Source: a candidate division TA06 bacterium B3_TA06 (GTDB lineage: Bacteria; Hydrothermota; Tepidihabitantia; B3-TA06). From it: 64,000 nucleotides of DNA. Shown here in pieces: positions 36,272 to 51,443 of this stretch (within the stretch, counting starts at the first letter, position 1; every line of letters starts with the position of its first letter). The stretch covers positions 1,836-65,835 of the forward strand of contig NJBO01000002.1 of NCBI GenBank assembly GCA_005223075.1. The letters run 5' to 3'. The translations under genes were made by a program, and so were the position numbers. The notes beneath the pieces were generated by a model. The model saw only the letters and a list, made by a program, of their open reading frames with translations. It made no database searches and was not told the origin of the DNA.

Positions 36272-36309
36272 GGGGTCCCCGCGACGGTGCAAAGCAACGG
36301 CGTGGGGTG
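36272..36309 (+). repeat. covarying hairpin repeat, copy A (GGGGTCCCC-stem-AAAG-stem'-GGGGTG)
   Basis: GGGGTCCCCGCGACGGTGCAAAGCAACGGCGTGGGGTG. Same architecture as copies at 40958, 41016 and 44978, with compensatory stem changes. Confidence 0.7.
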
Positions 36310-36410
36310 AATTCATCATATCATGCAGCGGATGTTGCCGTTCTTATAAGGAATCGTAGTTCTCGTAGGGGCCGGTCTTTAGACCGGCCCGGATATGGAG
36401 ATTAATATAG

Positions 36411-36438
36411 CGGGCCGACCTGAAGGTCGGCCCCTACG
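36411..36438. repeat. REP-like palindromic element (CGGGCCGACCTGAAGGTCGGCCCCTACG)
   Basis: Family with copies at 18451, 36729, 41334, 41779, 44796, 52782, 58499 (inverted) and 51281 (diverged). Confidence 0.75.
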
Positions 36439-36728
36439 TTCTCCACTCAGGTAGGTGGGTGATAACCGCATAACCACCACACTCAAGATTATGCCCCATA
36501 TGAGATCGCCCCCCTCCCTTTGGTCGCTTGCACCCCCTTCGGGTGGTCGCGATGACAATTAGGCGGGCTTTCTTTTTCCCCTCCCCCTACCCCCTCCACC
36601 AAGGGAGGGGGATTTTATTCCTCCCCCTTGATGGCGTCAGTGCCCCCGTCGGGTAGGGAGGTGACCTCTGCGAAACAGAGGTCGGAGGAGGTGAATAAAA
36701 TGCGGGCTACTCGCAATGACAAACAAAA

Positions 36729-36758: not shown

Positions 36759-37036
36759 CTTGTACTCCTAGTCGGATTGACCTTTCCCAGGTGGACACAG
36801 CTCGTTAAATATCCAACCAAGGTCCATTACGTCAAGCTCTCCGCTCAGGTCAAGGTCGGTGCTGTCCAGGGTGCCTCGACATTCGTGGCATTCATAGACG
36901 AGCTTCAGGAACTTGCCCCCCACCAGTCGGGGAACCTCGTTTCGCCTTTCTTTACCATACCAAGTGAATACATCCCGGCCACCTTTAGCACTATTGCACC
37001 TTCGGCAACACAAAACAAGGTTATGTATTTCGTGAG

Positions 37037-38127
37037 TTCAATAATGAAGTGCAACACCTTGGAAAGCGAGAGGGATTTCGTTATTCTGAGGATGTATGCA
37101 CTCAATCTACCGACATCTTGGACTGGAGGAGCGTGAGGTGACAGCGTGCCCCTTGAGCGCTTTATGCGCTCATAGGGTATAGAGAATATGCTTAGAGATG
37201 GGCGATCCATACGCGAGATGGCGCAGGTTTTAGGAAGGAACGCCTCCAGCATCTCGCGGGAGCTACGGCGCAACCGCTCACCAGTCCACGCGAGTTACCT
37301 TGATCATCGCGCCCAGGAGCGTGCGGATAGACGCAGGTCAAACGCAAGCCGCAGGATGCGATTGAAGAGTGATAAGATCAGGGATTACGTGGTGTCCAAG
37401 CTCAACCAAGACTCCTCGCCAGAGCAGATAGCTGGAAGGATCGAGATAGATTGGCCTGGTCTATCTATCAGCCACGAGGCTATCTATCAATACGTCTACC
37501 ATCCTTCCACCCCCAACCGAGGAGAGCTCATCGGTTGTCTGAGGCGTTCTCACAAGAGACGCAAGAGGAAGGGTAGGGCACCAGACAAGCATAGGTCTAA
37601 GATAACGGGTAGGGTGGGCATAGAACAAAGACCATTTGAAGTCGAGACCAGAGCCAGGTTTGGGGACTGGGAGGCAGACACCTTGATCTCACGCCGGAGC
37701 AGGGCGGCTATATTAACCATGGTAGAACGCTCAAGCAGGTTGGTTCAGCTTGAAAAGTTGGATGCTAAGACCTCTACTCTGACATCTCAAGCTATCATCA
37801 GCCGCCTGCTGTGCTTTCCCAGAGACTCCAGGCATACTATCACCTTCGACAATGGCCCGGAGAATGCTGAGCATGAAGGAGTCTCCCAATCCACAGGCAT
37901 AAGCTGCTTCTTCTGCGAACCTTACTCTTCGTGGCAGCGAGGAACCAATGAGCACACCAACGGACTGGTAAGGCAATACTTGCCAAAGAAGACCGACTTC
38001 GCTATAATCAGTAGTGAGGAAATCAAGTTGATAGAGTCAAGGTTAAACAACAGGCCCAGGAAATGCCTGGGCTTTAAAACCCCACTCGAAGTCGCTAACA
38101 TATGTGTTGCACTTCAACGTTGAATGT
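37037..38127 (+). mobile_element. IS30-family insertion sequence (~1.09 kb) with ~22-bp imperfect terminal inverted repeats (GTTCAATAATGAAGTGCAACAC / ATTCAACGTTGAAGTGCAACAC)
   Basis: The terminal inverted repeats flank a single transposase ORF. The element interrupts an HNH endonuclease reading frame. Confidence 0.85.
37188..38123 (+). CDS. IS30-family DDE transposase
   Basis: N-terminal HTH (SIREMAQVLGRNASSISREL). DDE region (GDWEADT...ITFDNGPE...NGLVRQYLPKKTDF) typical of IS30/IS1655-like transposases. Confidence 0.88.
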   Translation: MLRDGRSIREMAQVLGRNASSISRELRRNRSPVHASYLDHRAQERADRRRSNASRRMRLKSDKIRDYVVSKLNQDSSPEQIAGRIEIDWPGLSISHEAIYQYVYHPSTPNRGELIGCLRRSHKRRKRKGRAPDKHRSKITGRVGIEQRPFEVETRARFGDWEADTLISRRSRAAILTMVERSSRLVQLEKLDAKTSTLTSQAIISRLLCFPRDSRHTITFDNGPENAEHEGVSQSTGISCFFCEPYSSWQRGTNEHTNGLVRQYLPKKTDFAIISSEEIKLIESRLNNRPRKCLGFKTPLEVANICVALQR

Positions 38128-38573
38128 AGGTTTCATTAATTTTGCAATCCGGAGGAGCATTAATCTTCTGTGGAATTATATGATCCCAAGTTAAATCCTC
38201 GGTGGCGTCGCAGTAAGAACACCTTTTTTCTTCAAACATCTTCTGATCTTCCCGAACGACATCCGACCACTTCTTCCGCCCCATTTGCAAGTCCTTGAAT
38301 GTTTTCATGATAAACCCGTATTGCCCTTCCATCCCAGCAGATCGAGCGATCAACTTCGCATACTGCCAGAAGATAAGATCCCGGACAGTCTTTACAGCTT
38401 TAGGCGGCATAGATTCCTCCTCGTGACATACCACTATATCCGCAACCGCAAGCTTGTCAACTCTTCTTCTCCCCCCCTCTTCCCTGAAAGGCTTCAAGCA
38501 CCTTGACCAATCCACACAAAGCCCTATAATTCAGAACGTGGGACAAGCTGAATCCCATGTAAGGAGGAGTTAA

Positions 38574-39038
38574 ATGAGTAACACCTTTGGCTCAACCGAT
38601 GAGCTGCTCGATTTTGCGATCGCTAAGGAAGAAGAGGCCAACCAATTCTATACCAACCTGGCGACACGGGTAGAGAAATCCCCCATGCGCGAGGTATTCG
38701 AACGCTTCGCCGCCGAAGAGCTCAAACACAAGGCCAGGCTGGAGGCGATCAAACATGGTAAGCTGCTCTTATCCGCAGAACAAAAGGTTGCCAATCTCAA
38801 GATCGCCGACTATCTTGTGGAGATCAAGCCAGAACCCGACGAAACCCTTGACTATCAGAAAACCCTGATGATCGCGATGCAACGCGAAAAGGCATCATTC
38901 AAACTCTATACCGACCTGGCCGCGATAACCGACAACGCGGAACTGCAGGAGACGCTCTTGGGCCTTGCGCAGGAGGAGGCAAAACATAAGTTGCGCTTTG
39001 AGATCGAATACGACGAGCACATCCTGACCGAGAACTAA
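38574..39038 (+). CDS. ferritin-like / rubrerythrin-family diiron protein (no rubredoxin domain)
   Basis: Paired E..H helices (EEEANQFY...EELKHKARLE ... QREKASFKLY...EEAKHK). Confidence 0.65.
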   Translation: MSNTFGSTDELLDFAIAKEEEANQFYTNLATRVEKSPMREVFERFAAEELKHKARLEAIKHGKLLLSAEQKVANLKIADYLVEIKPEPDETLDYQKTLMIAMQREKASFKLYTDLAAITDNAELQETLLGLAQEEAKHKLRFEIEYDEHILTEN

Positions 39039-39112
39039 CGCTTCAGGTTATCTCTCGTATGTAGGAGACAGGAGGATAGGAGAGGCAAAAAACCTCAAAT
39101 CCAAGGAGGATT

Positions 39113-39295
39113 TTGATGGCAGACAACGAAACGAAGGTAATTGAAGCCTTTAAGAAAGCAGGCGAACCCTTAAAGGCCGGACAGGTGGTAGAGGCCACAG
39201 ACATCGATGCCAAGGAAGTGGGCAAGATCATCAAGAAACTCGCAAAGGAAGGCAAGCTTATCTCCCCGAAGCGCTGTTACTACGGACTCCCCTGA
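39113..39295 (+). CDS. small (60 aa) putative winged-helix DNA-binding protein
   Basis: A ribosome-binding site is present. Helix-turn-helix-like VIEAFKKAGEPLKAGQVVEATDIDAKEVGKIIKKLAKEGKL. It sits between two rubrerythrin-family genes. Confidence 0.45.
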   Translation: MMADNETKVIEAFKKAGEPLKAGQVVEATDIDAKEVGKIIKKLAKEGKLISPKRCYYGLP

Positions 39296-39391
39296 TGCTG
39301 CTTGTAAAATTATCAGGCACGCTGAAGCGCCCTCTTTACCTTTTACTTCCCCAGACCCGCCGTTAAAGGAGTGGAAAGGAAAATAGAGCAA

Positions 39392-39967
39392 ATGGCAAGC
39401 ATAAATGGAACAAAAACCGAACGCAATCTCTTGACCGCGTTTGCCGGCGAGTCGCAGGCCCGCAACCGATACACCTACTTTGCGAGCAAGGCACGCAAGG
39501 AAGGCTATGTTCAGATAGCCGACATCTTTGCCGAAACCGCCAATCAGGAACGCGAACACGCCAAACGTCTCTTCAAGTTCCTCGAGGGCGGCGAGGTGGA
39601 GATAGCCGCAGCATTTCCCGCAGGCGTAATCGGGACGACGCCTGAGAACCTTAAGGCCGCAGCCGCAGGCGAGAACTACGAGTGGACCGAGATGTACCCC
39701 GGTTTCGCCAAGCTGGCCCGCGAGGAAGGCTTTGAGGGGATCGCAGCGGTTTTCGAGGCGATCTCGGTTGCCGAAAAACAGCACGAGAAGCGCTACAATG
39801 ACCTTCTGGCCAACATCGAGGCGGGCAGGGTCTTCAAACGAGATAAACCGGTGATCTGGCGGTGCCGCAACTGCGGCTACCTGCACGAAGGCACCGAAGC
39901 CCCACAAGAATGTCCAGCCTGCGCCCATCCCCAGGCCCACTTCGAGATACTTGGTGAAAACTGGTAA
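39392..39967 (+). CDS. rbr: rubrerythrin (diiron domain plus C-terminal rubredoxin-like C-x2-C...C-x2-C)
   Basis: N-terminal [22 protein letters not shown]-terminal WRCRNCGY...CPACAHP. Confidence 0.9.
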
Positions 39968-40117
39968 CCCGTAACACCGTAACACGCCTCCACTCCCACG
40001 GGGATTTCGCTTCTAACAAAACCATAGTATCAAGGGTGCATTGATGGTGCGCCCTTCCTTTTTGTTACCTTGACAACCCACCACTCTGAGGTTATCCTGA
40101 GCAAACAAGGAGGCAGC

Positions 40118-40795
40118 ATGCGTAAGATAATTATTCTGATCCTTCTAGGAGCGGCTATAGCCGCCGCCGATCCATTCAACACCGTCACCGCCTACACCCT
40201 ACCCCCTCAGATTGGCTACATCGGGCCGAACGTGCCGGTTACGATACCCCTAGAAGAAGGAGGAGACATCTCCATCGCCCCGGTCCTTTGGGCAGGCTAT
40301 GGAATCTTCCCTCGGTTCGATATGACCTTGATGATCCCGGCCAGTATCTACGAGGGCGAGTTCAATCTGGGCGACGCAATGCTTGAGTGGCGTTACGAGC
40401 TGATCTCCTATGAGATGTTAAGCGTCTCGCCGGTGTTCGATGTATTCATACCCATGTATTCCGGTGGTTCGTTGAGCTTTGGCCCAGGGGTGATGGCAAG
40501 CGCTGGGTTTCCCGCCCTGCAGTTACATGCGAATCTCTTCTACACTACTGACTTCAAGGGTTCGGCAGGCGAACTGGCTTTTCTTACTGCTTCTGAATAC
40601 TGGCTATACGAAAGCTTCTCACTCTATACAGAACTTAACCTCTATTACTCGCTGGACGCAAAGGAAGGCACAGTTGAGTTCTGGCCCGGTGTAAGCTGGT
40701 ATCCTACCAACTGGTTGAACATAAATGCCGCCCTTGGTATCCCCACTACCCTGGGCTATCTCTCCCCCGGCCTGGCGGCGTACGTGAGTTTTTAA
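40118..40795 (+). CDS. putative outer-membrane beta-barrel protein
   Basis: AAGGAGG ribosome-binding site. Signal peptide MRKIIILILLGAAIAAA. Alternating amphipathic strands. C-terminal ...AAYVSF. Confidence 0.6.
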   Translation: MRKIIILILLGAAIAAADPFNTVTAYTLPPQIGYIGPNVPVTIPLEEGGDISIAPVLWAGYGIFPRFDMTLMIPASIYEGEFNLGDAMLEWRYELISYEMLSVSPVFDVFIPMYSGGSLSFGPGVMASAGFPALQLHANLFYTTDFKGSAGELAFLTASEYWLYESFSLYTELNLYYSLDAKEGTVEFWPGVSWYPTNWLNINAALGIPTTLGYLSPGLAAYVSF

Positions 40796-40874
40796 GAAAA
40801 ACCTGAGATTAAAAGAGGTTTGTGTTACGAATCTTTGCAGACGTGCCACAAACTCGTCAGAGTTATATCGCACT

Positions 40875-40950
40875 CGTCACAAAAAAGCTGGTCAAAAGCT
40901 GGACAAAAGCTCCCCAAAAGCTGGTCAAAAAGTGGACAAATCAAGGACAA
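40875..40950 (+). repeat. iteron-like array of ~6 degenerate 11-13 bp direct repeats (AAAGCTGGTCAAA / AAGCTGGACAA / AAGTGGACAAA)
   Basis: Direct repeats adjacent to an AT-rich stretch (41090-41140) and the hairpin repeats. Non-coding. Confidence 0.6.
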
Positions 40951-40957
40951 TTTTCCC

Positions 40958-41052
40958 GGGTCCCCATAAAGCTACGAAGTAGATTTACGGGGTAAAAAAA
41001 GCTGGTCAAAACCCCGGGGTCCCCGCAAAAGCGCGAAGCGATTTTGTGGGGT
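40958..41052 (+). repeat. two tandem covarying hairpin repeats (copies D 40958-40993 and C 41016-41052) separated by AAAAAAGCTGGTCAAAA
   Basis: GGGTCCCCATAAAGCTAC-GAAG-TAGATTTACGGGGT and GGGGTCCCCGCAAAAGCGC-GAAG-CGATTTTGTGGGGT. The stems differ in sequence but keep their pairing. Confidence 0.7.
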
Positions 41053-41277
41053 AGAAAAAGGTGGACAGGGACGCGACTGCGTCGCGATTGCAAATATCAA
41101 ATTGCAAAATGCAAATTTTAAAATGATGGTGCGGCTGCGGAGCAGACGTCTGGGGTTAAAAATTCGGGTAATTTCGGGTTGATTTATTATAGGGGAAGCG
41201 GTTTCCCCGCTCCCTTTATCCCCTTATTCATCTCAGCCCGCTTTTTTAATCGGGCCTTTTACCCTCACTCTTCAGAA

Positions 41278-41392
41278 CACCTTGAGGAGATTCGTAGGGG
41301 CGTACCTTTAGGTGCGCCCGCATGATTTAATCGGGCCGACTTGACGCGTAGCGGCGTCTGATCGCCAAAGTCGGCCCCTACGAGCTTACTTA
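41278..41392. repeat. MITE-like element (ACACCTTGAGGAGATTCGTAGGGGCGTACCT..AGGTGCGCCCGCATGATTTAATCGGGCCGAC...GTCGGCCCCTACGAGC)
   Basis: Copies at 41741-41815 and 44702-44835. The last carries a nested insert of a second repeat. Confidence 0.75.
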
Positions 41393-41538
41393 TTCCTTTT
41401 GATCATCTTCTCCGAACGGTTTTCTTTCGGGTTCCGTGAGTATTTATGAACATCATCTCCATTAGGATTAGGTCTTGGAGTTGGCACGGGCTGTTTGTGT
41501 TTTTGAGAACCATTCTCAGATTTTTCTTTTTCTGGCAT
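41386..41538 (-). CDS. small Pro/Lys-rich protein (50 aa), tandem paralog of 41543..41701
   Basis: MPEKEKSENGSQKHKQPVPTPRPNPNGDDVHKY... Its start lies 1 nt after the stop of the upstream small ORF (GGTTAAAATG), which indicates translational coupling. Confidence 0.4.
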   Translation of the reverse strand: MPEKEKSENGSQKHKQPVPTPRPNPNGDDVHKYSRNPKENRSEKMIKRNK

Positions 41539-41542
41539 TTTA

Positions 41543-41701
41543 ACCTTCTTTCGTATGGTTAGGTGTCGAAGAAGAGGATTGCTCAGATGGTGGCTCGGGA
41601 CGTCTCGAAGTAGGATTATCAGCATCCGGATTGGGCTTAGGAGTTGGCAAAGGTTTATCCGGCTTACCTGATGGCTTTTTAGGCCTGTCTTGATCAGGCA
41701 T
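41543..41701 (-). CDS. small Pro/Lys-rich protein (53 aa); missed by the ORF track because it is below the length cutoff
   Basis: AGGAGG ribosome-binding site 6 nt before the ATG. MPDQDRPKKPSGKPDKPLPTPKPNPDADNPTSRRPEPPSEQ... shares M-P-[DE]...(L/V)PTP(K/R)PNP with the downstream ORF. Confidence 0.4.
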
Positions 41702-41740
41702 TAAAACCTCCTACTAAAGAAAATACAATTAATACAAGAT

Positions 41741-41815
41741 TCGTAGGGGCGTACCTTTAGGTGCGCCCGCATGATTTAATCGGGCCGACTTTCAAGTCGG
41801 CCCCTCTCTCCGTGC
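41741..41815. repeat. MITE-like element copy (includes the REP hairpin CGGGCCGACTTTCAAGTCGGCCCC)
   Basis: Near-identical to 41281-41345 and 44765-44830. Confidence 0.75.
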
Positions 41816-43218
41816 CAACGAAAAGCACGGCGGAAACCAAGGTCTTCGGCCTCTTTGATAGTCCATACATATGTCTCTCCTCTTTCCCTCTCAACCTTAG
41901 TCCTGTCGTATTGCTGATCAAAAGGAAGATGATAAATCTTTTCACCCGTCTGACGATTCACATTGCATTTGACTAAGGGATAATCCTCAAGTTTGAAATT
42001 TTCTATGACTTCCACTCCAAGAACCTCGGCAAACCTATGAGCTACAGGCGAAAGTTCGGTGGTTGTCATAAAAACAGACTTCACTTTTAACTTCTTTTGA
42101 AACAGCTCTAAATTCTGGGGACGTTGTTTTCGTTCTTGCTCTACTCTATACATCATGGTAGTCCCATATAGCTGAGCGATGTGCTTTTCATATATTGTTC
42201 GCCATCTAGCCCAACATTTGCATTGAACGATGTGAACCTCTTTGCCTTTCTGGGCAATAACATCCCGACCTAAATCTTCTTCTCTATACAAGACTCCAGA
42301 TGGCAATACCTTATATCCTTTCTCCCAATACCACCATGCCACATATCTCTCGTAATCTCTTCCTATTTGCCACCTACTTTTATGAGGACGCCGACGCCAA
42401 TTATCAAGAGCACGTTGAAGGCGCTCTTGATGGGAAAGTTCTTCCTTAACCGCCTCCCCCTGCCAAAAAACTGCCGGATCAACACCTTCTTCAATCTCCT
42501 CTTCTTCTGGAAGGTTCAAGGTAGTAGCAATCATTTCGTCAATTGTTTCGCCTTCAAAGTCGAAAAGATGCGGAAGGATACTCTGCCAGTAACGAAGTAA
42601 GTATTTAGCCCGACGCCATCTCTTTTCTGCCTCCCGTCGTTTATTTGCAATGTCTCGAATTTCTTCCGCAGCCCTAGGTGCCGGATGCGATTTGTTTTCT
42701 AAATAATCTGCTCTACGTAAATCTTGAAGGTAAAAATAATCTGCGAATACTTCCCCGAGCCAAGGCATCCCTCTTTTGCTTTCTTCAATTATCCTCTGAA
42801 CTTCCTCTTGCTTCCTATTTATCTCTGCTTCCTTTTGTTCTATTGTCACTTTCATCCTAGACCTTCGCTCACTAATCTCCTTTTTCTCTTCCTCCATCAT
42901 CTGTTTAATCTCCTCTTCTCTCTGCTCCATCATTTTTCCCATCCTAAACTTCTCATCGGCTACAAGTCTTTCCCTTTGTTCAATCTCCATCTTTAGCTTC
43001 TCCATATTCGAACGGAGTTCTTTAATCTCTGCCAATTTGCTTACCAGTTGTCTCCTCTGGCGATCTATAGTTGCAGAGAGTTCTCTATTTCGATTTTCCA
43101 AATCAGTAAGTCGCCTTTTTCGTCTTTTAACACTTCGGATTATCGATGATATACCCCATATCAAAAGACCTAAAGCAACTAAAATCAGTAAAACCCAACA
43201 AATTGGTCCCTCAAACAT
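41776..43218 (-). CDS. membrane-anchored coiled-coil protein with C-terminal Mrr-like (PD-(D/E)xK restriction-endonuclease-fold) domain
   Basis: N-terminal transmembrane helix (ICWVLLILVALGLLIWGISSII). An ~130-aa E/K/R-rich coiled coil follows. The Mrr_cat-like core is IGRDYERYVAWWYWEKGYKVLPSG...EEDLGRDVIAQKGKEVHIVQCKCW....HIAQLYG....VFMTTTELSPVAHRFAE. The C-terminal K.YHLP...Y...EAE.LGFR resembles a Cys-less topoisomerase-type zinc-ribbon. Confidence 0.7.
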   Translation of the reverse strand: MFEGPICWVLLILVALGLLIWGISSIIRSVKRRKRRLTDLENRNRELSATIDRQRRQLVSKLAEIKELRSNMEKLKMEIEQRERLVADEKFRMGKMMEQREEEIKQMMEEEKKEISERRSRMKVTIEQKEAEINRKQEEVQRIIEESKRGMPWLGEVFADYFYLQDLRRADYLENKSHPAPRAAEEIRDIANKRREAEKRWRRAKYLLRYWQSILPHLFDFEGETIDEMIATTLNLPEEEEIEEGVDPAVFWQGEAVKEELSHQERLQRALDNWRRRPHKSRWQIGRDYERYVAWWYWEKGYKVLPSGVLYREEDLGRDVIAQKGKEVHIVQCKCWARWRTIYEKHIAQLYGTTMMYRVEQERKQRPQNLELFQKKLKVKSVFMTTTELSPVAHRFAEVLGVEVIENFKLEDYPLVKCNVNRQTGEKIYHLPFDQQYDRTKVERERGETYVWTIKEAEDLGFRRAFRWHGERGRLESRPD

Positions 43219-43276
43219 CTTTCGACTCCTGCTAGAATTCTTCTAGCCCAGAACTCCCACCTGAACATATCAGCCC

Positions 43277-43375
43277 TCTAATCATAAAATTATCTTATAC
43301 TCGGATACATCTTTGTCAAGTGGATTTAAAGCCTCGCTGGCGAACCTTAAGGTTCGCACTACATGGATAGAGAGG
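43277..43375. repeat. ~100-bp repeat carrying a sigma70-like promoter on the minus strand (TTGACA-N16-TAAGAT), a GCGAACC-TTAA-GGTTCGC hairpin and an AGAGAGGGC-CGAA-GCCCTCTCT hairpin; second copy at 44830-44940
   Basis: AATCATAAAATTATCTTATACTCGGATACATCTTTGTCAAGTGGATTTAAAGC...CTCGCTGGCGAACCTTAAGGTTCGCACTACATGG occurs twice, each upstream of one of the two minus-strand genes. Confidence 0.7.
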
Positions 43376-43408
43376 GCCGAAGCCCTCTCTGCTTTTCTTA
43401 AAAGGCTC

Positions 43409-44506
43409 CTACCTTGTCCTTATGTTTCCTGAGTTCCTGTTGTCATGGCGATACTTGGGCCATGACGATGAAGCCAATCCCTTGGATTTGCTGGTAATCG
43501 CGTAGAGATTCTTGTCATCCGCCCCGAAGTAGATCGTTCCGTCGTCAGCGAGCGCGAGTGAAGAATATATCTCTCCGTCGGCTTCATATGTCCACTTAAG
43601 CTTACCTGAGGGATCAAGCGCATAGACGTTGTGATCGGGCGAGCCGAAGTAGATTGTCCCGTCCAAGCCGATTGTCGGGCCGATGTTTACGTCACCCTTT
43701 GTCTCGTATTGCCACTTGACTTCCCCCTCCGGGGTGAGCGCGTAGAGGTTGTTGTCAGCCGACCCGAAGTAGACGGTGCCGTCTTTGGCCACCGCACAGG
43801 AAGACCATATCTCATAGTCGGTCTTGAACTTCCACTTGAGCTCGCCTGAAGGGCTAAGTGCGTAAAGGTAGCCGTCCCTGGACCCGCAGTAGATGGTTCC
43901 GTCCATGCCAATCGCAGGGGAGGCCCGCACCCAGTTCCTGGTCCAGTATCTCCACTTACGCTTGCCGTCCGGGGTAAGGGCATAGATGCAATTGTCCTCC
44001 GAGCTGACGTAAATCGTCCCATCTACACCGATCGCAGGGGTAGTCGCTATGAAATCGCCGGTCCTGTACTTCCACTTGAGTTCGCCTTTGGGGGTAAGCG
44101 CATAAAGGTAACGGTCAAACGAGCCGAAGTAAATCGTCCCGTCTGAACCGAACGCAGGGGTTAACGCCCTTCCCTTGGTCTTGAACTTCCACTTTAGCTC
44201 GCCTTTGGAGGTAAACGCATATAGGTTCTTGTCGTTCGCCGCAACGTAGATCGTCCCCTTGGCATCGATTGCCGGTGCATGCACACCATACTCGATCTTG
44301 TATTTCCATTTGACCTTCCCTGAACGGGAGATGGCGTAAAGGAAGTTGTCTATAGCGGTAACGTAGATCGTCCCGTCTTTACCGATCACCGGGGTTCCTA
44401 CCTCATCACCAAGCTCGCATTGCCACTTGAGCTTGCCCGGTCTCTGACAGGTAAGCAGCCCCAGAGCGAGCGCTGTGCCTAACAGAATAAGCAGTGCTTT
44501 TTTCAT
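43409..44506 (-). CDS. PQQ-repeat (8-bladed beta-propeller) lipoprotein, BamB-like
   Basis: Lipoprotein signal MKKALLILLGTALALGLLTC. Eight repeats of DGTIY.(G/S)..D..LYA......KWK. Confidence 0.8.
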   Translation of the reverse strand: MKKALLILLGTALALGLLTCQRPGKLKWQCELGDEVGTPVIGKDGTIYVTAIDNFLYAISRSGKVKWKYKIEYGVHAPAIDAKGTIYVAANDKNLYAFTSKGELKWKFKTKGRALTPAFGSDGTIYFGSFDRYLYALTPKGELKWKYRTGDFIATTPAIGVDGTIYVSSEDNCIYALTPDGKRKWRYWTRNWVRASPAIGMDGTIYCGSRDGYLYALSPSGELKWKFKTDYEIWSSCAVAKDGTVYFGSADNNLYALTPEGEVKWQYETKGDVNIGPTIGLDGTIYFGSPDHNVYALDPSGKLKWTYEADGEIYSSLALADDGTIYFGADDKNLYAITSKSKGLASSSWPKYRHDNRNSGNIRTR

Positions 44507-44701
44507 CTTTCCTCCTCATTGTGTTGGTGTTGAAGGATTTTTATCAAAGCCCTGGCAGGGCGGACTGCTAACGCAACCATCAAGTTTCCTCCTTGATACT
44601 GTCTTATGTTGAGTGTAATCGGAAACACGGACGTTGTCAAGTAAAAGGAAACAAATAGACTCTTATGAGAGAAAGCCCCAGCCGCGTATGTGAACTTCTC
44701 T

Positions 44702-44940
44702 TAAGAACACCTTGAGGAGATTCGTAGGGGCGTACCTCAGCGTGCCCCTTGGGATACCGTGTATCCCATAGGGTATTAGGTCCGCCCGCATGATTTAATC
44801 GGGCCGACTTTCAAGTCGGCCCCTACGAGCTTTAATCATAAAATTATCTTATACTCGGATACATCTTTGTCAAGTGGATTTAAAGCGTGTAGCGCGAGGC
44901 TTCAGCCTCGCTGGCGAACCTTAAGGTTCGCACTACATGA
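44702..44940. repeat. MITE-like element (with nested insert) followed by the second copy of the promoter-bearing repeat
   Basis: See 41278 and 43277. Confidence 0.7.
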
Positions 44941-44977
44941 ATAGCCCGTAACACAAGGCGCGCCCTTAATCTCTTCC

Positions 44978-45015
44978 GGGGTCCCCGCGACGTTGCAAGG
45001 CAACGGCGTGGGGTG
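44978..45015 (+). repeat. covarying hairpin repeat, copy B
   Basis: GGGGTCCCCGCGACGTTGCAAGGCAACGGCGTGGGGTG. Confidence 0.7.
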
Positions 45016-45017
45016 CA

Positions 45018-45632
45018 TCAGTGGGTGATGGTGATGCGGCGGATGGTGTCCGGAGGAATACCCTCGTCTTCATTACCGTTGCGCAACTGCATCACCACGT
45101 CCATGCCTTCGATCACTCGACCGAATACGCAGTAGTTGCCGTCAAGGTCAAGCGCCGGCTCAAGGCAGATGTAGAACTGACAAGACGCGGAGTTCCGGGC
45201 AGCGCCGCGTGCCATGCCAACCGCACCCTTAATATGCGATCGGCCGCTTTCCTCGTAGTCTATGGTGTAACCTGCGCTGCCCTGACCGGTGCCCAGAGGG
45301 TCGCCGCCCTGAATCACAAAGCCGCCGACGTAGCGATGCCAGATAAGGCCGTCGTAGAAGCCCGCATCTGCAAGCCTGATGAAGTTGCGCACAGTGTTCG
45401 GCGCCTCCATTGAATAGAGCTTGAACGTAAAGCTTCCCTTGTTGGTCTCAACCACAGCGCACTCGTTCCCGGTGAGCTTGACCGGATTGCTTTTCACGCG
45501 AAGCGCAAGCCCCACCCTCTCCTTGGCAGAAAGGTTGTAGGTATCGGGTATCGAAGGCTGAACCGCCTTAACACACGCAAGTCCTGCAAGCAGAACCAGG
45601 GACGTGAATCCGGCGAGGCGAACAAGCTTCAT
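45018..45632 (-). CDS. cyclophilin-type peptidyl-prolyl cis-trans isomerase, secreted/lipoprotein
   Basis: FYDGLIWHRYVGGFVIQGGDP...GAVGMARG...CQFYICL..LDGNYCVFG.VIEGMDVV. Signal peptide ending LACVKA. Confidence 0.88.
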   Translation of the reverse strand: MKLVRLAGFTSLVLLAGLACVKAVQPSIPDTYNLSAKERVGLALRVKSNPVKLTGNECAVVETNKGSFTFKLYSMEAPNTVRNFIRLADAGFYDGLIWHRYVGGFVIQGGDPLGTGQGSAGYTIDYEESGRSHIKGAVGMARGAARNSASCQFYICLEPALDLDGNYCVFGRVIEGMDVVMQLRNGNEDEGIPPDTIRRITITH

Positions 45633-45636
45633 GACC

Positions 45637-46302
45637 TCAGTCCCTTGAGATCGTTATCTTTACGATCTTGTCGCCGCGGCGGAGTTCATTGACCACATCC
45701 ATGCCTTCGACGGTCTTTGCGAAAACCACGTAGTTGCCGTCAAGCCCGGGCTGGGGTGCCAGGCAGAAGTAAAACTGACAACCTGCCGAGTTGAGGTCTT
45801 GACCGCGAGCCATACCCACGGCACCGAGTTCGTGCTTGCGGTTGTTGTGTTCGAAGGCAATATTGTACCCGGGGTTACCCGAACCACTGTTAAGCGGATC
45901 GCCGCCCTGCAGTACAAAACCCGGTTCGTAACGGAAAAAGATCAAACCATCATAGAATCCTGATTCGGACAGCCGGATGAAGTTGCGAACCGTGTTCGGG
46001 GCATCCTTCGAGTAAAGCTTAACCACAATCGTTCCCTTGTTCGTCTCGATAGTGGCCTTCTCATTACCCTGAAGCTCGATATCCTCATCCTTAACGGCAA
46101 GTGCAACCTTAATGCGATCCTGCGGGGTAGCCGTAGAATCCCACAGGTGGCGCGTGATCCCGAAAGGACCGGGCTCCGCTTTAGTAACGGTTGGTGGCGG
46201 CAACGGTTCCTGTTTGGGCTCCTCCTTTTTCTCCGCCTTGCTACAATAGATCATGGCAGCGGCAAGAATACCCATCAGTAAAACACCGATTGTCTTCTTC
46301 AT
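45637..46302 (-). CDS. cyclophilin-type peptidyl-prolyl cis-trans isomerase, lipoprotein (tandem paralog)
   Basis: Same motifs (FYDGLIFFRYEPGFVLQGGDP...). Signal peptide MKKTIGVLLMGILAAAMIYC. AAGGAGG ribosome-binding site. Confidence 0.88.
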   Translation of the reverse strand: MKKTIGVLLMGILAAAMIYCSKAEKKEEPKQEPLPPPTVTKAEPGPFGITRHLWDSTATPQDRIKVALAVKDEDIELQGNEKATIETNKGTIVVKLYSKDAPNTVRNFIRLSESGFYDGLIFFRYEPGFVLQGGDPLNSGSGNPGYNIAFEHNNRKHELGAVGMARGQDLNSAGCQFYFCLAPQPGLDGNYVVFAKTVEGMDVVNELRRGDKIVKITISRD

Positions 46303-46370
46303 AGAGCCTCCTTTGGTTTGGTGATGATACATAGGAACCCCAAAAGGTCAAGTCATTAAACCTCATTAGC

Positions 46371-46398
46371 TTGACACTCCAGAAGCACACTGTATAAT
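46371..46398 (+). promoter_or_regulatory. sigma70 promoter TTGACA-N16-TATAAT for the V-type ATPase genes
   Basis: Perfect -35 and -10 with 16 nt spacing, ~12 nt upstream of the first ORF. Confidence 0.55.
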
Positions 46399-46409
46399 TC
46401 GCGCAGGAG

Positions 46410-46745
46410 TTGACCTTGAAACAGGATCTCTTAAAGGAAATCCGCCAAGCTGAAAAGGAAGCGGCCAGGATGATTGCGGACGCAGAGGAGCAGGGGCAAA
46501 AGGAACTTGCAGAACTTGCCGCAAAGCACGAGAAGGAAAGCGCAAAGCTCGCTCTAAAGCGAGAAGAAACCCTGGCTCAAACGAGGGAGCGCGCTCGCGA
46601 GGAAGCACTTAAAGAAGCCAAGACAATAGGGGCTGAGGCAAAGAAACAAGCAGAGAGCTTGCGCAAAAAGGCAGCACCCAAGATTAACAAAGCGGCAGAC
46701 CACGCCCGGAAGAAAGTCCTGGAACTGTGGGAACAGCAAGGGTAG
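46410..46745 (+). CDS. V/A-type ATPase peripheral-stalk subunit (G/H-like coiled-coil subunit)
   Basis: 111 aa, wholly helical and E/K/A-rich. It sits immediately upstream of subunit I. The start may instead be the TTG at 46416. Confidence 0.6.
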   Translation: MTLKQDLLKEIRQAEKEAARMIADAEEQGQKELAELAAKHEKESAKLALKREETLAQTRERAREEALKEAKTIGAEAKKQAESLRKKAAPKINKAADHARKKVLELWEQQG

Positions 46746-49009
46746 AAAAAATACTCATAGCGACCCATCTTGATGAAAGGGATGAGTTGCTCCGCAGACT
46801 GCAGGAGGAGGGGATTCTTCACATCTCGAAGTTTGAAGAAGAAAGGCCAGATAAAAAACAACCCGAGACCGTTGTCCCTGATGCCGGCGAGGCAGAGCTC
46901 AAGCAAACCCTCGTTGGTCTGAATCAGGCTATAGGCTTCCTTTCAGGATACGCACAGAAGCGCAAGGGCGGAGTTTTTGCGGGCAAGCCTTCACTTCCTG
47001 CAGAAGAGTTCCGCCGCCGGGTTGATGAGTTGGATCTTCCGATCAAGCTGAAGCGAGCCTCCCAATTAAGCCAAGCCGCCTCCCGGCTGGAGACCGAGGA
47101 ACGACAGCTCCACGCAGAGCTTGAAACTCTTACCCCATGGAGACCCATGAAGCACCCGCCTTGTGAATATACGAACCTGAAACAAACCCACGCTCGTTTC
47201 GTCTTCGTATCCAGCAAGGAGGAGAAAGAAGCGTTCGCTAAATCGCTTAAGCCTCTAACGGCAAACTATGAGACCGTAAGGCGGGAGGGCGAGACCGAGT
47301 ACGCGGTGATACTTTTCCCAACCAACGAAGAAGAAGCCGTCGAGGATACGCTCAAGGCAACCGGCGTCAAGATGATCCAGCTTTCAGGGTTCGCAAAACC
47401 CCCGACCGAGGAAATCAAAGTAAGAAGGAAACTTCTGGCAAAGATAGGCTCAGATAGGGAAAAATTGACATCCCAGGCTCGCGAGATGAGCGCCGAGCTT
47501 TCAGGACTCCAAACAGCACTCGACCTCTACGGAAACGAGGGTTTGATACGCGAGCAGCACGAAAAGATGCTTGCCACCGAGAAGGCAGGGCTTATCGAAG
47601 GCTGGATACGCAGCTCTGATCGCAAGAGACTTAAAGAGATTGTGGCAGGTTTCGAGGCGAGTGAGGTTCGCAGCATCAAAGCGAGGAAGGGCGAGCGGGT
47701 GCCCGTAGCCCTGCGCAATCCGCCCTGGTTAAAACCCTTCGAGCTGATCTTAAACATGTACGGCACCCCTAACGGACGCGAAGCCGATCCCACACCACTC
47801 ATGGCTCCATTCTTCGCCCTCTTCTTCGCTTTGTGCATTAGCGACGCAGGATACGGGATAGTAATAGCCGCGGTAACCGCGTGGCTTATCTGGGGTCGCA
47901 GGATTCGAAACAACCTTATCTGGATACTCTTCTACGGAGGGGTGCTGACAATATTTACCGGTGCGGCCATGGGTTCGTGGTTCGGCAACATGCCCGATAT
48001 GCTCGAGATCCCATGGCTCGTGGGCTTCCGCGACGCGCTTACCTGGTTCGACCCCTTAAAGAACCCCATGCCGTTCTTCTACATATCGCTTGGACTTGGC
48101 TACTTCCAGATGATGTTCGGAATGGCGGTTGACGTAATAGACGGTCTGCGAACCGGTGAATACGGGTCGGCGTTGTTTGAGACCATGCCCTGGTTCCTTA
48201 TCTATCTCGGCATCCCATTGATGATTGCGACCTCCATGAGCATCTTGCCCAAGATTCTTTTCACACCGCTATTGATCGTCGTGATTGCAAGTCTGGCTGT
48301 CTCGTTTGTTCTATCCAATCGTCCTGGCCCGACCTCTGTAACAAGCGCCATACTTCTGTGGGCGGCGATGACCGCAGCATTTCTTGCCGCAGCAAAGGTC
48401 TTCGGTTTGCTTGCGCTTCCGGGAATAATCCTCAAGGCGCTTCTCATTGGAACCATCGCCGCACTCTGGCTCTACACTGTCTTCAAGGGACTCTCGGAGA
48501 AGACCCTGCGCGCCGCAGGCGTTATATTCGGCGTGCTCGGACTCGCGGCAATTATTCTATACGTAGCCGGGGTGATTCAGGCTAACCTATTCCTGGCCGC
48601 TGTATTCGTCCTCAACCTGATCTTCACATTCTCAGTTCTCAAGGGCTGGGCATCGCGTATCGTATGGGGCGCTTACAGCCTCTACTCCAACACAACCGGT
48701 GTGCTGGGGATCATCCTCTCCTACGTTCGCCTAATGGCCTTGGGGATGGTAACCGCCGGAATCGCAATGGCCTTCAACCAGATCGCCTGGATGCTTGGGG
48801 GAATCCCTGTGGTATCTGTTATTCTCATGCTCATCGTGCTTGTTATCGGTCACGTCTACAACCTCGCGATAAGCGGCTTGAGCGGATTTGTGCATACCCT
48901 TCGTCTACAGTATGTGGAGTATTTCCCCCGCTTCTTTGCAGGCGGAGGGGCAAGATTTGAACCATTTGAGTTGAAAACCCGCTACGTAAAAGTTACAAGG
49001 AGGACTTAG
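46727..49009 (+). CDS. V/A-type ATPase subunit I (116-kDa/a subunit)
   Basis: N-terminal soluble coiled-coil half plus C-terminal half with ~7-8 transmembrane helices. The position before the proteolipid is conserved. GTG start. Confidence 0.8.
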   Translation: MGTARVEKILIATHLDERDELLRRLQEEGILHISKFEEERPDKKQPETVVPDAGEAELKQTLVGLNQAIGFLSGYAQKRKGGVFAGKPSLPAEEFRRRVDELDLPIKLKRASQLSQAASRLETEERQLHAELETLTPWRPMKHPPCEYTNLKQTHARFVFVSSKEEKEAFAKSLKPLTANYETVRREGETEYAVILFPTNEEEAVEDTLKATGVKMIQLSGFAKPPTEEIKVRRKLLAKIGSDREKLTSQAREMSAELSGLQTALDLYGNEGLIREQHEKMLATEKAGLIEGWIRSSDRKRLKEIVAGFEASEVRSIKARKGERVPVALRNPPWLKPFELILNMYGTPNGREADPTPLMAPFFALFFALCISDAGYGIVIAAVTAWLIWGRRIRNNLIWILFYGGVLTIFTGAAMGSWFGNMPDMLEIPWLVGFRDALTWFDPLKNPMPFFYISLGLGYFQMMFGMAVDVIDGLRTGEYGSALFETMPWFLIYLGIPLMIATSMSILPKILFTPLLIVVIASLAVSFVLSNRPGPTSVTSAILLWAAMTAAFLAAAKVFGLLALPGIILKALLIGTIAALWLYTVFKGLSEKTLRAAGVIFGVLGLAAIILYVAGVIQANLFLAAVFVLNLIFTFSVLKGWASRIVWGAYSLYSNTTGVLGIILSYVRLMALGMVTAGIAMAFNQIAWMLGGIPVVSVILMLIVLVIGHVYNLAISGLSGFVHTLRLQYVEYFPRFFAGGGARFEPFELKTRYVKVTRRT

Positions 49010-49486
<477 letters not shown>

Positions 49487-49489
49487 CCC

Positions 49490-50062
49490 ATGCCTCGCGA
49501 CAAGGTAAGCGCCAAGATAGAAGCTGACGCAAAGGCACGCGTTAAAGAGATCCAGGCCGAGTTTGCCGAACGCTGCAAGAAGCTGGAGACAGAGCATGAA
49601 GGACGCAAGAAGGCCTGTAGAGAAGAGACCAAAAGGCTTGCCGCGGCTGAAGAAGAACGTCTCAAGAGGGAGATACTCTCAGAGGCACGACTGACGGCAA
49701 GGAGGGAGATACTTGCAGCAAAGCACCAGCTGATAGAAGAGACCCTGAAGCGAGCGGCAGAAAAGTTCACCAAATCCAGGAACTATCCAGCCCTGCTTGC
49801 GAGGATCGTTGCAGAACAAGGCAGCCGAACCCAGGTGCTGCTCTCTGCGAGTGACTGCAAGCGTTTTGCAAAATCTGTCTGGGCAAAGAGGGCGGATGAG
49901 GCACCGATCAAGGGCGGCGTAATCCTGCGGACATCGGCAAGAGACCTGAACTTCAGCATAGATGCCGCGTTCGAAGCGCTGGGCGAGCAGCTCAGCCTTG
50001 AGGTATCCGATCTCCTGTTCCCGGATTCCGTCTGTAGCAAAAAACTCTCCAAAAAGAAATAG
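49490..50062 (+). CDS. V/A-type ATPase subunit E
   Basis: Long N-terminal helix (KIEADAKARVKEIQAEFAERCKK...) plus a C-terminal globular part. A terminator follows. Confidence 0.75.
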   Translation: MPRDKVSAKIEADAKARVKEIQAEFAERCKKLETEHEGRKKACREETKRLAAAEEERLKREILSEARLTARREILAAKHQLIEETLKRAAEKFTKSRNYPALLARIVAEQGSRTQVLLSASDCKRFAKSVWAKRADEAPIKGGVILRTSARDLNFSIDAAFEALGEQLSLEVSDLLFPDSVCSKKLSKKK

Positions 50063-50078
50063 CCCCACTGAATGTTTA

Positions 50079-50110
50079 AAGGCCCCGCTCAGGCGGGGCC
50101 TTTTGATTTA
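50079..50110 (+). terminator. rho-independent terminator (GGCCCCGC-TCAG-GCGGGGCC plus TTTTGATTT)
   Basis: Perfect 8-bp GC stem and a T-run directly after the subunit E stop. Confidence 0.7.
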
Positions 50111-50123
50111 TGAGAATAGACTC

Positions 50124-51141
50124 TTAACGCTTACGCCTTTTGCGGAACCGCAGCCTGGAGCGAAGGGCCAGGCCGGCCACGAAGGCGAAAGGCAATATGG
50201 GGAAGATAATCAGGGCAGAATAGTACTGATTGTGACTTTCTGCATCGTCTTCAGCATAGGTGAAAACCAGATCCGAATCTATATCCCCCGGATCGTAGTA
50301 ATAGGAACCCAGTCTGGTTATAAAATCGCCTTCCTTGCATACCTCGGCGACAAAAGGATAGTTCTCCTTTACCGCTTCGTACTCGCGACCGTTCAACTTG
50401 TTTGCGTAGTAATACTCGAGATTAATGCCGGCGTTCTGCTCCAGCTTGACACGGTGCTCGGCGATTACGTGGATGAGCAACCCGTAATCGTAACGGTAAT
50501 CGTAATCCGGATTGACGCTCAGGGAGGTAATCCTCATCGGATAAACTATCTGCGACGAGGTAAAGGTAAACTTGACCGGCTGCACGTTTATGCTGTTGTC
50601 GCGAGGGATATCCTGAACGCTGAAGGCAACGAAAACCCAGTCCCGCTCTATATAGTCTCTAAACACCTCGCGAGCCTTAACCGTGTCCGAGGAGTCGGCA
50701 ACCCAGTAGTCGTTTTCCGCAAGCCAGGTAAAAAGGGTGTCGGGATCGTCGGCCTTGATGATTTCGTATGAAAGCACCCCCACGCTTCCTTCCTCGATTA
50801 TCCTAACGCCGTAACCGTCGTAGTAACCACCATCGTAGATAACACCGCAACCAAAACCTCCGTAACTGGGTCTGCACATCTCCTCGATCTGCTCAAAAAC
50901 CGCGATCGTGTCTTCTTCAATCGCAGGCCTGGAGGGGAATGGAACTATCCATCCGAAAGAGCCCGCGTCGCTTGCAACATTGATCAGAAGGTGCAGAATC
51001 TCCTGACTCCCTTCATACTCAATTATAGCGTACTGGTAAGGCTCTCCGACATAAATCCCTGGGGGAGGAAAGATGCCCCCCATCCGCCCAAAGCGTCACT
51101 GCAAACGCACTGACCACCGAAAGAATCAAAACCCGTTTCAT
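50124..51141 (-). pseudogene. secreted protein gene with C-terminal transmembrane anchor (RKRRKR) interrupted by a +1 frameshift in a G6 homopolymer (plus-strand C-run 51076-51082)
   Basis: An ATG at 51141 with an AGGAG ribosome-binding site encodes the signal peptide MKRVLILSVVSAFAVTLWADGG in one frame. The 319-aa body (GIFPPPGIYVGEPYQY...) is in the frame +1 relative to it. Removing one G restores a single ORF. Confidence 0.6.
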
Positions 51142-51369
51142 AACCTCTCCTTGGTTGAGTTTCTCTGACAATACTCAAAAACACCCTGCCTGTCAAGTCA
51201 TCAACTTCCAATCGTTGGAAGAATACACCCACATAGTGGAACAGTTAGATTGCTGAGTTTAAGTATATTGAGGGAGAAAGTAGGGGCCGGCCTAAAGGTC
51301 TACCCCTGCTTAAAGAATCCATTAAATCCAGCAACGCATGTCTGGCAAAAGACGACGGCACTTCACGAC

Positions 51370-51397
51370 TTGACATAAGTCTCAAAATAACTATAAT
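51370..51397 (+). promoter_or_regulatory. sigma70 promoter TTGACA-N16-TATAAT for the RRM protein gene
   Basis: Perfect consensus hexamers. Confidence 0.55.
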
Positions 51398-51443
51398 TAT
51401 ATGTTCGTTGCCACAAATGGCAGCGAGACAGGAGAAAAACTAC

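Follow-up and report, generated by a model that had tools for sequence, protein, structure and literature searches.

Hot spots for defence genes have been described before, for example the P2/P4 hotspots (PMC9122126). The repetitive extragenic palindromic (REP) elements known from the literature are imperfect palindromes of 18-22 bp, rich in guanine and cytosine (GC), which carry a GTAG/CTAC tag and are mostly intergenic; inverted pairs of them, the REPIN doublets, give long hairpins and are mobilised by the REP-associated tyrosine transposase RAYT, or TnpA_REP (PMC3733652, PMC8266576). For the nuclease treated below, the nearest known kinds are the Mrr or type IV restriction endonucleases and AF1548 (PDB 1y88), of the Pfam family Mrr_cat (PF04471). 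Epona, an Mrr_cat protein with a holin-like domain of two transmembrane segments encoded in a cassette of a Vibrio chromosomal integron, has been reported to be anti-phage (bioRxiv 10.1101/2024.07.02.601686). Here we analyse a stretch of 64,000 nucleotides (hereafter the window) from candidate division TA06 bacterium B3_TA06, in which a segment at 41.2-44.9 kb encodes a predicted membrane-anchored Mrr-type nuclease, two small open reading frames (micro-ORFs m1 and m2) and a lipoprotein with pyrroloquinoline quinone (PQQ) repeats. We consider it probable that this segment is a strain-variable composite islet of three modules split by REP doublets, one module being a membrane-anchored, plausibly defensive nuclease. 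The islet would occupy a hot spot between a conserved 241-aa gene and two genes for cyclophilin-type peptidyl-prolyl isomerases (PPIases), with a resident promoter beside the cyclophilin genes that would face inward. The modules would be (i) an Mrr-type nuclease that stands alone, is foreign in composition and carries a membrane anchor, (ii) a pair of orphan micro-ORFs rich in Pro and Lys, and (iii) a host-like PQQ lipoprotein gene, inserted between the resident promoter and the nuclease so as to duplicate the promoter module.

Occupancy of the hot spot in related strains

Contigs of relatives were found through a search with the flanking 241-aa protein, an exact match to the V-ATPase c subunit, and homologues of the nuclease and the micro-ORFs. 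In their common stretches these metagenome contigs show about 90-96% DNA identity, and at least five arrangements occur between the same flanking genes. The site is empty (H0) in L088, a 155-kb contig that aligns to window positions 38432-40940 and 44776-51840 with 94-96% identity and from which about 41163-44775 is absent; nothing lies between its flanks except the 11-bp array, one REP doublet, the promoter module and some unique sequence, and the breakpoints fall in repeat elements. In L098 (H1) the nuclease stands alone, the order being PPIase end, hairpin, promoter, nuclease (P0002, 81% identical overall to the window protein), half a REP doublet and backbone (window 41199-41141), without the PQQ gene and the micro-ORFs. 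The window itself (H2) holds nuclease, micro-ORFs and PQQ gene. The contigs L087, L090, L091, L093 and L095 (H3) have, after the backbone, half a REP, a 61-aa Pro-rich micro-ORF, a gene for a 174-aa membrane protein, a variant promoter and the PPIase gene. L089 (H4) carries m1 and m2 at 97% DNA identity, then a 352-aa orphan gene on the opposite strand with a REP doublet on either side, and then the backbone, with an inverted PycTM-like gene remnant upstream of m1. In L094 (H5) a REP lies directly beside the PPIase hairpin, where the contig ends. All junctions between arrangements lie in or beside REP elements.

The first-pass annotation, made from the letters of the window alone, had taken the region for a mobile or formerly mobile module and had proposed to look for presence-absence variation. 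Such variation is plain in L088, which lacks the segment between flanks about 95% identical to those of the window, and by sequence comparison the segment is a true accessory islet. Since nuclease, micro-ORFs and PQQ gene occur in different combinations, they appear to be independent modules rather than one system. The duplicated promoter module fits a composite origin: in H1 the resident promoter sits directly before the nuclease, whereas in the window the PQQ gene and REP doublet 3 lie between the two copies. The coordinates of the features are listed in Table 1.

The 174-aa protein of H3 matches the PADLOC model PycTM over nearly its full length (E 1e-6), a match that a local Pfam scan did not confirm. 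Its gene (L090/L091 5104-5625, L093 4187-4708, L095 224-745) has a GC content of 0.40. The resemblance to the Pycsar effector PycTM is thus near full length, but this cargo has no adjacent cyclase, and it is not in the window.

Table 1. Features of the hot spot and its surroundings, in window positions
Feature	Position	Strand	Remarks
lipB and lipA	34.7-36.3 kb		ordinary chromosomal genes
IS30-like transposase gene	37188-38123		HTH_38 + rve; only transposase among ORFs scanned at 30-50 kb
241-aa gene	40070-40795		no family match; conserved left flank of hot spot
11-bp tandem array	40883-40940	.	AAAAGCTGGWCA-like, ~5 units; further units 40998-41008, 41057-41067
REP doublet 1	41268-41390	.	REPIN-like; 22-bp extension, GTAG-hairpin, spacer, hairpin-CTAC
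m2	41386-41538	-	50 aa from internal ATG (41538); MPEKEK...PTPRPNP...KRNK
m1	41540-41701	-	53 aa; MPDQDRPKKP...PTPKPNPDADNPTSRRP...; AGGAGG Shine-Dalgarno site
REP doublet 2	41737-41813	.	degenerate copy; overlaps 3' end of nuclease ORF
Nuclease (CEE36_01715)	41776-43218	-	480 aa; predicted membrane-anchored coiled-coil Mrr-type PD-(D/E)xK nuclease
Nuclease, C-terminal beta domain	41809-41982		residues 413-470; conserved
Nuclease, core	about 42004-42363		residues 286-405
Nuclease, helical domain			residues 152-285
Nuclease, stalk	42775-43137		residues ~28-148
Nuclease, membrane helix	43138-43206		residues 5-27
Promoter module, copy 1	43276-43375	-	GTAG-tagged REP 43340-43357; TTGACA 43319-43314; TAAGAT 43297-43292
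GC-rich hairpin	43368-43391	.	directly after PQQ stop codon; terminator-like, T-run on + strand only
PQQ-repeat lipoprotein gene	43409-44506	-	365 aa; BamB-like beta-propeller
PQQ-proximal promoter-like site	44612-44640	-	TTGACA-17 nt-TACACT
REP doublet 3	44698-44829	.	22-bp extension; ~45-nt insertion in first hairpin; z -5.5
Promoter module, copy 2	44830-44945	-	REP doublet 44894-44931; TTGACA 44873-44868; TAAGAT 44851-44846
GC-rich hairpin, other class	44978-45018	.	directly after PPIase stop codon
Two cyclophilin PPIase genes	45018-46332		right flank of hot spot
V-type ATPase operon	from 46.4 kb		then fabF, etfBA, coaE, others
REP copies in window	36.37, 36.41, 36.73, 41.3, 41.75, 43.34, 44.8, 44.9, 58.5 kb

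The membrane-anchored nuclease and its family

The 480-aa ORF is 100% identical to the hypothetical protein CEE36_01715 of candidate division TA06 bacterium B3_TA06, encoded on a 265.5-kb contig. Pfam Mrr_cat matches its residues 286-360 (E 2.5e-9, 37.7 bits versus a cut-off of 21), and its AlphaFold2 model (predicted local distance difference test score 81) shows the alpha/beta fold of restriction endonucleases. In the model a single continuous helix of residues 5-148 forms membrane helix and stalk, followed by a helical domain (152-299), the PD-(D/E)xK core (303-405) and a small beta-rich C-terminal domain (416-459). The residues E290, D315, D319, Q332, C333 and K334 are invariant in 70 aligned homologues, in which the conserved core spans residues ~146-470, and E290, D319, Q332 and K334 are also invariant in a set of 26 homologues. 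Both the architecture read from the letters beforehand (membrane helix, coiled coil, Mrr core) and the proposed conservation of the catalytic residues were therefore borne out, and the protein is, as far as its sequence tells, a true Mrr-type PD-(D/E)xK nuclease with an intact E...D...QxK site. The hydrophobic helix 5-27 is followed by the Arg/Lys block RSVKRRKRR, which by the positive-inside rule would place the stalk and the nuclease in the cytoplasm. While E. coli Mrr has an N-terminal Mrr_N domain, the window nuclease has the membrane helix and coiled coil in that place, and Pfam gave no match to the winged-helix DNA-binding domain Mrr_N in the 480-aa protein. A sequence search of the PDB with the profile of the nuclease family returned no match; for the domain behind a weak NCBIfam match at residues 416-464 ('sunset domain'), a literature search returned nothing. 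The nuclease gene has a GC content of 0.43 versus 0.52 for the window, and in five close relatives the values are 0.426-0.443, whereas the flanks of three of these have 0.54-0.63. Compared with L098, the window protein has an identical membrane helix and a core that is ~96% identical, and the stalk is hypervariable, with a 36-residue indel and much lower identity.

The claim that nothing like this protein was annotated did not hold, as more than 3,738 homologues of the nuclease were found in the protein database at E <= 0.001, some of them labelled 'restriction endonuclease'. By two strict peptide patterns, the family is present in 441 of 185,579 species genomes, with 34-52% identity, and its hosts include Clostridia, Zixibacteria, Aquificota, Chloroflexota, Planctomycetota, Patescibacteria, Cyanobacteria, Proteobacteria, Chlamydiia and archaea. 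No homologue was found in phage genomes, and on plasmids only four were found, all on non-mobilizable Hymenobacter plasmids, where a gene of the family DUF4238 adjoins the nuclease.

When the ORFs from 80 nuclease loci were clustered, the sole recurring neighbour was a small gene adjoining or overlapping the start of the nuclease gene (21 of the 80 loci in the clustering, 22 in a separate tabulation); neither a methyltransferase or an ATPase nor a PQQ protein or a micro-ORF recurs beside the nuclease in these loci. The small upstream partner has an N-terminal membrane helix and a C-terminal zinc ribbon of the topoisomerase type (PF01396, Zn_ribbon_Top1). Examples with membrane helix, coiled coil and zinc ribbon are found at L014, L015, L022, L046, L049, L050, L063, L066, L073, L075, L077, L080, L082 and others, and the nuclease there is without a membrane helix. 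A fused membrane helix occurs in 33 loci and the zinc-ribbon partner in 22, and no locus has both; 13 of the 24 remaining loci have a different small ORF that abuts the nuclease upstream and encodes an N-terminal membrane helix, bringing the loci with the helix on an abutting upstream gene to 35 in total, and four are at contig edges. Partner and nuclease thus look like a split version of the architecture that is fused in the window. The unusual membrane-tethered, coiled-coil-spaced form of Mrr noted earlier is then not a peculiarity of one protein: anchoring, either in the protein or through the partner, is by these predictions a near-universal trait of the family. That the helix is found in the protein or on the upstream gene, never on both, argues that membrane localisation is essential to function.

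As for its role, the nuclease would face the cytoplasm at the end of a helical stalk of ~120 residues, if the charge pattern is a guide, and would cut DNA near the inner face of the membrane. Its likely target would be invading phage or other foreign DNA, which would make it a type IV-like or effector-type defence nuclease with no methyltransferase alongside. We regard defence as its most likely role, at chances that are roughly even. The patchy distribution of the family, its strain-variable presence, its foreign composition and the use of the same hot spot by the PycTM-like gene speak for defence. A minority of loci have integrases, serine recombinases, AbiEii, SoFic, PsyrT, DpnI or ToxN nearby, and in some genomes BrxC, MzaA and MADS genes lie a few kb from the nuclease. 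By its description, Epona is comparable, being a single-gene, membrane-associated Mrr_cat protein in a small accessory cassette; it differs in having a holin-like domain with two transmembrane segments in place of one helix and a coiled coil, and the window nuclease family also has the split form with a zinc ribbon. Of the earlier suggestion of a defence or DNA-sensing module, defence remains plausible given the patchy, strain-variable occurrence and the precedent of Epona, but the single module does not.

Several observations weigh against a composite islet with a defensive nuclease. No PADLOC v2.0.0 model matched the nuclease except for coiled-coil hits to LmuB and JetC over residues 28-209, and in other genomes most of the immediate neighbours are housekeeping genes. 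Defence-like proteins make up roughly 8-10% of both the immediate-neighbour set and the distal control set, and this similar share in the control means that enrichment in defence islands is not demonstrated; the immediate neighbours matched 113 PADLOC models versus 30 for distal ORFs, a comparison that redundancy among the models makes unquantifiable. The low GC content of the nuclease gene could be explained in part by its Lys/Glu-rich stalk. No RAYT (Y1 transposase) gene was seen among the 28 window ORFs scanned, and the order of the events that built the islet is not resolvable from the arrangements. Finally, L088 also lacks 41163-41287 and is hence not a simple recombination product of the window arrangement, so that a simple deletion between REP doublets 1 and 3 was rejected as its origin.

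If not defensive, the nuclease might be a housekeeping, membrane-associated enzyme of repair, recombination or DNA uptake. RmuC, a DNA recombination protein, has an N-terminal anchor, a coiled coil and a C-terminal PD-(D/E)xK nuclease, and so has the same general design; many members of the window family also stand amid housekeeping genes, and there are no phage homologues and nearly none on plasmids. Yet RmuC belongs to another Pfam family, with no RmuC match here, and is broadly and vertically distributed, whereas the nuclease family is found in so few of the species genomes though in many phyla, at 40-50% identity, and its presence varies between strains that are ~95% identical. As its composition is also atypical for the host, and integrases and toxin-antitoxin or abortive-infection genes are nearby in some loci, we judge an RmuC-like housekeeping role to be unlikely, and defence to be the better reading.

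Micro-ORFs and the PQQ lipoprotein gene

The pair of translationally coupled, paralogous Pro/Lys-rich ORFs of 50-53 aa pointed out by the first-pass annotation is well founded. The second, m2, starts 1 nt past the stop codon of m1 (TAAAATG), and its own stop codon abuts a REP (AAG TAA GCTCGTAG). The two peptides are 37% identical (BLASTP E 6e-10), with the common motif PTP(K/R)PNP. Conservation in relatives was likewise seen, within the lineage only. In L089 both micro-ORFs are intact, have ribosome-binding sites and are called by the gene caller, the m2 orthologue being P0121; m1 is 96% identical there, and it is 59% identical over 34 residues to the N-terminal half of the 61-aa variant (L095). 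The 61-aa variant of H3, which is translationally coupled to the PycTM-like gene (GGAGGTTAACATG), has two copies of the motif PxPxPNP(D/H)A(D/V)N. When 5.8 billion clusters and 1.84 billion representatives were searched with the profile of the micro-ORFs, only the orthologue P0121 was returned, and we take the micro-ORFs to be lineage-restricted orphans. Among m1, m2 and the variant in L087, variation in the motif's proline codons is confined to third positions. From the 61-aa variant m1 differs at 36 of 108 bases without an indel, and of the codon differences 7 are synonymous and 16 non-synonymous; the micro-ORFs of the window and L089 differ in 3 synonymous versus 4 non-synonymous codons, too few differences for a ratio of non-synonymous to synonymous rates. 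The micro-ORFs are probably translated and fast-evolving, and no other occupant of the hot-spot edge is as persistent. At positions 1-240 of L089, beside m1 and m2, 48-bp inverted-repeat arms flank ~144 bp that encode a truncated PycTM-like fragment on the opposite strand; the structure is the remnant of an inversion or else a fold-back of the assembly.

One may ask whether the nuclease belongs with the micro-ORFs downstream of it in a module of two parts, a membrane-associated effector and a small Pro-rich partner, of which the PycTM-like gene with its 61-aa micro-ORF would be a parallel. The coupling of the micro-ORF to the PycTM-like gene in L090-L095 and the PycTM-like remnant beside m1 and m2 in L089 would fit this, and, as no separate promoter for m1 and m2 is predicted in the window, they may plausibly be transcribed together with the nuclease gene, across REP doublet 2. 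Against it, L098 has the nuclease without micro-ORFs, the profile search found no micro-ORF homologue beyond the lineage, and the micro-ORFs are always found at one particular edge of the hot spot, a position more in keeping with a resident gene than with cargo. We therefore give this pairing little weight compared with a composite of separate modules.

The PQQ ORF has been correctly recognised before as a lipoprotein gene. It has seven internal repeats of 117-120 nt, matches PF13570 (E 4e-51) and PF13360 (E 1e-34), and begins with a lipobox-like N-terminus (MKKALLILLGTALALGLLTC); at 134.8 bits against an equivalog cut-off of 285 for BamB, the protein is not BamB itself. Its GC content of 0.537 is host-like. 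Nothing in the data points to a functional link between the PQQ protein and the nuclease.

The whole segment had been read as one module, and a single mobile defence or DNA-sensing system with cooperating parts would be consistent with all of its genes being on one strand, with the absence of the segment as a block from L088, and with the direct copies of the extended REP doublet at both bounds. This reading has largely been undone by the relatives. The nuclease is alone at the same site in L098, the micro-ORFs are without the nuclease in L089 and L090-L095, and the close relatives P0003, P0004, P0005 and P0007 all have different neighbours. The expected conservation of the gene neighbourhood is likewise missing, with a PQQ or micro-ORF partner recurring beside the nuclease in none of the 80 loci. 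The GC content of the PQQ gene is host-like and that of the nuclease gene is not, and each gene has its own promoter-like site. A single system is accordingly very unlikely, and the composite islet is preferred.

Repeats, promoters and chromosomal setting

The repeat copies at 41278, 41741 and 44702 had been described as resembling miniature inverted-repeat transposable elements (MITEs). The repeats are indeed present, and single-stranded DNA folding of the doublets is well above that of shuffled sequence (z -4.9 to -5.7), but they are of the REP type: by their structure these copies are GTAG-tagged, REPIN-like REP doublets. Their layout is GTAG, a GC-rich palindrome, a ~13-nt spacer, a second palindrome and CTAC, with the ends paired by a CGTAGG/CCTACG stem, which closes the copies at 41.3 and 44.7 kb and is not found in the degenerate copy at 41737-41813. 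These three copies form two hairpins each, whereas 36365-36440 forms one long hairpin. Two copies have the 22-bp left extension and two have hairpin-loop insertions, that of doublet 1 being 23 nt in the second loop (41343-41365); doublet 1 folds at -27.4 kcal/mol (z -4.9). The elements have 9-bp terminal inverted repeats, and since the outer sequences (..GAT, GCTT..) are constant and belong to the element, there is no target-site duplication at the repeat copies. A classical MITE was thus rejected, there being a GTAG/CTAC tag instead.

A scan for perfect stems of at least 7 bp with GTAG or CTAC alongside gave 11 distinct tagged hairpins in the window, all but two of them intergenic; the raw count, in which nested loop variants are included, was 22 versus 0.9 in shuffled sequences. 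The hits include 36369-36433 (a clean inverted doublet), 36730, 43340, 44894-44931 and 58506. REPs are also present in the relatives L001-L003 and L087-L089, and in L001-L003, which are close relatives, a REP lies immediately 3' of the nuclease stop codon. The stop codon of the window nuclease and its tail, (G)ERGRLESRPD, are encoded by REP doublet 2; in homologues the protein ends 4-6 residues past RWHGE, and the REP-encoded tail is also found in P0002 of L098. The elements resemble published GTAG-tagged REPs and REPINs in their tag, intergenic placing, inverted pairs, lack of target-site duplication and tolerance of loop insertions, and differ from them in that several sequence classes coexist and that the elements are found at the junctions of all structural variants of a single hot spot. 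No tyrosine recombinase was found among the ORFs scanned at 30-50 kb. A second class of hairpins (GGGGTCCCCGCG...CGTGGGG) without the GTAG tag occurs at 36272-36312, 41016-41056 and 44978-45018, with a weaker copy at ~40953-40995; as two of these copies directly follow stop codons (lipA, PPIase), they are possible terminators.

A ~100-bp repeat with its own promoter had been placed before each minus-strand gene. Both copies (43276-43375 and 44830-44945) and both promoters are there: a 44-nt core is identical in the two and found nowhere else in the window (0 expected), and each has TTGACA-16 nt-TAAGAT on the minus strand; the right part of the repeat is the REP itself in copy 1 and the REP doublet in copy 2. 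Copy 1 is predicted to drive the nuclease gene, whose 5' untranslated region has an AGGAG Shine-Dalgarno site, and L098 has a matching promoter directly in front of its nuclease. Copy 2 fits the description less well: a REP doublet separates it from the PQQ start, which is ~340 bp downstream, and the PQQ gene has a closer promoter-like site of its own. Copy 2 is the resident copy beside the PPIase gene and is also present in the empty-site relative L088. In L088 (11266-11293) the resident sigma70-like promoter points into the REP doublet and the 11-bp array with no ORF downstream, and it may drive a non-coding or antisense transcript.

The 11-bp direct repeats upstream of the islet, which had been called iteron-like, exceed chance expectation at 40883-40940. 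The unit occurs 5 times within 185 bp and 8 times in the whole window versus 2 expected, and Tandem Repeats Finder reports a period of 11 with 4.4-5.2 copies. The array, in a convergent region immediately 3' of the 241-aa backbone gene, is found in H0 (L088), H2 and H3 (L087), with the unit variants GCTGG or GGTGG; because every arrangement that covers the stretch has it, including the empty site, it belongs to the backbone and not to the islet. With AAAA tracts every 11 bp, phased DNA bending and a protein-binding array are both possible. That the region is the remnant of an integrated replicon, with the repeats as iterons by an AT-rich stretch, draws on the phased array and the TTGCAAA repeats after it and has next to no probability, in view of the array being at the empty site and in a convergent intergenic position, the absence of Rep, Par and relaxase genes in the region, the near absence of the nuclease family from plasmids, and inflections of GC skew that are all explicable by gene strand. 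A plasmid iteron origin or other replication origin was accordingly rejected, there being no Rep gene and the array not being specific to the mobile segment.

The window is ordinary chromosomal DNA of TA06 bacterium B3_TA06, with two rubrerythrin genes among the surrounding chromosomal genes. Exact look-ups of P0001, the PPIase, the micro-ORFs, the PQQ protein and the 241-aa protein gave no match. No Rfam family was found in the whole window at gathering thresholds or in 40.7-45.1 kb at E <= 1, and no tRNA or tmRNA gene was found in the window, so that the islet is not a tRNA-linked island. In L088 a ~1.7-kb segment (36762-38431) that holds the IS30-family gene is swapped for ~630 bp, which points to a strain-specific insertion of an insertion sequence beside the REP cluster at 36.27-36.8 kb. 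Six tandem 10-bp units (GTGTTACGRG) lie at 57623-57682, inside the 5' end of a CoaE-domain ORF (57592-58266) whose real start codon may be downstream of them. The stretches 27269-30535 and 31359-34033, which are 78-93% identical at an offset of ~3.6 kb and link a 1088-aa ORF to two ORFs with type IX secretion C-terminal sorting domains, suggest a recent duplication of a gene for a secreted protein. A conserved segment of ~41 nt (565-605, 2276-2316, 8944-8984, 15330-15370 and 18200-18240), in or near the 3' parts of five plus-strand ORFs, may encode a common putative C-terminal sorting signal.

The site is like the P2/P4 hotspots and integron arrays in its fixed position, its resident outward-facing promoter, its alternative defence-like cargo and the structured repeats between, and unlike them in that it has no integrase or attC-type sites, is chromosomal rather than borne by a phage or satellite, and includes a PQQ cargo that is not defence-like. 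An integron proper was rejected, as the ORFs at 30-50 kb include no integrase and the repeats end in CGTAGG/CCTACG rather than attC-type GTTRRRY cores. A bolder reading, which as a whole we hold to be possible but rather improbable, links two proposals. The anchored Mrr-like family would be a new, widespread anti-phage or anti-plasmid system that tells self from non-self by position, cutting only at the inner membrane face where foreign DNA enters. The promoter-equipped TA06 hot spot would swap small defence cassettes via REP doublets as an integrase-free analogue of an integron, in which membrane-linked effectors would have the fast-evolving Pro-rich micro-proteins for resident partners.

If borne out, the locus offers a clear case in nature, from an uncultured phylum, of REP doublets at every junction of a gene-flux hot spot, and it would bear on the part that REP elements play in shaping accessory genomes. 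It is also a warning that a block bounded by repeats can be pieced together from unrelated insertions. If the nuclease is defensive, it would represent a compact one- or two-gene system with an unusual logic of spatial restriction. The family to which it belongs has thousands of members across bacterial and archaeal phyla, with no characterised member or solved structure, and the most valuable product of the analysis is the definition of this large, uncharacterised family of membrane-tethered Mrr-like nucleases, fused or split.

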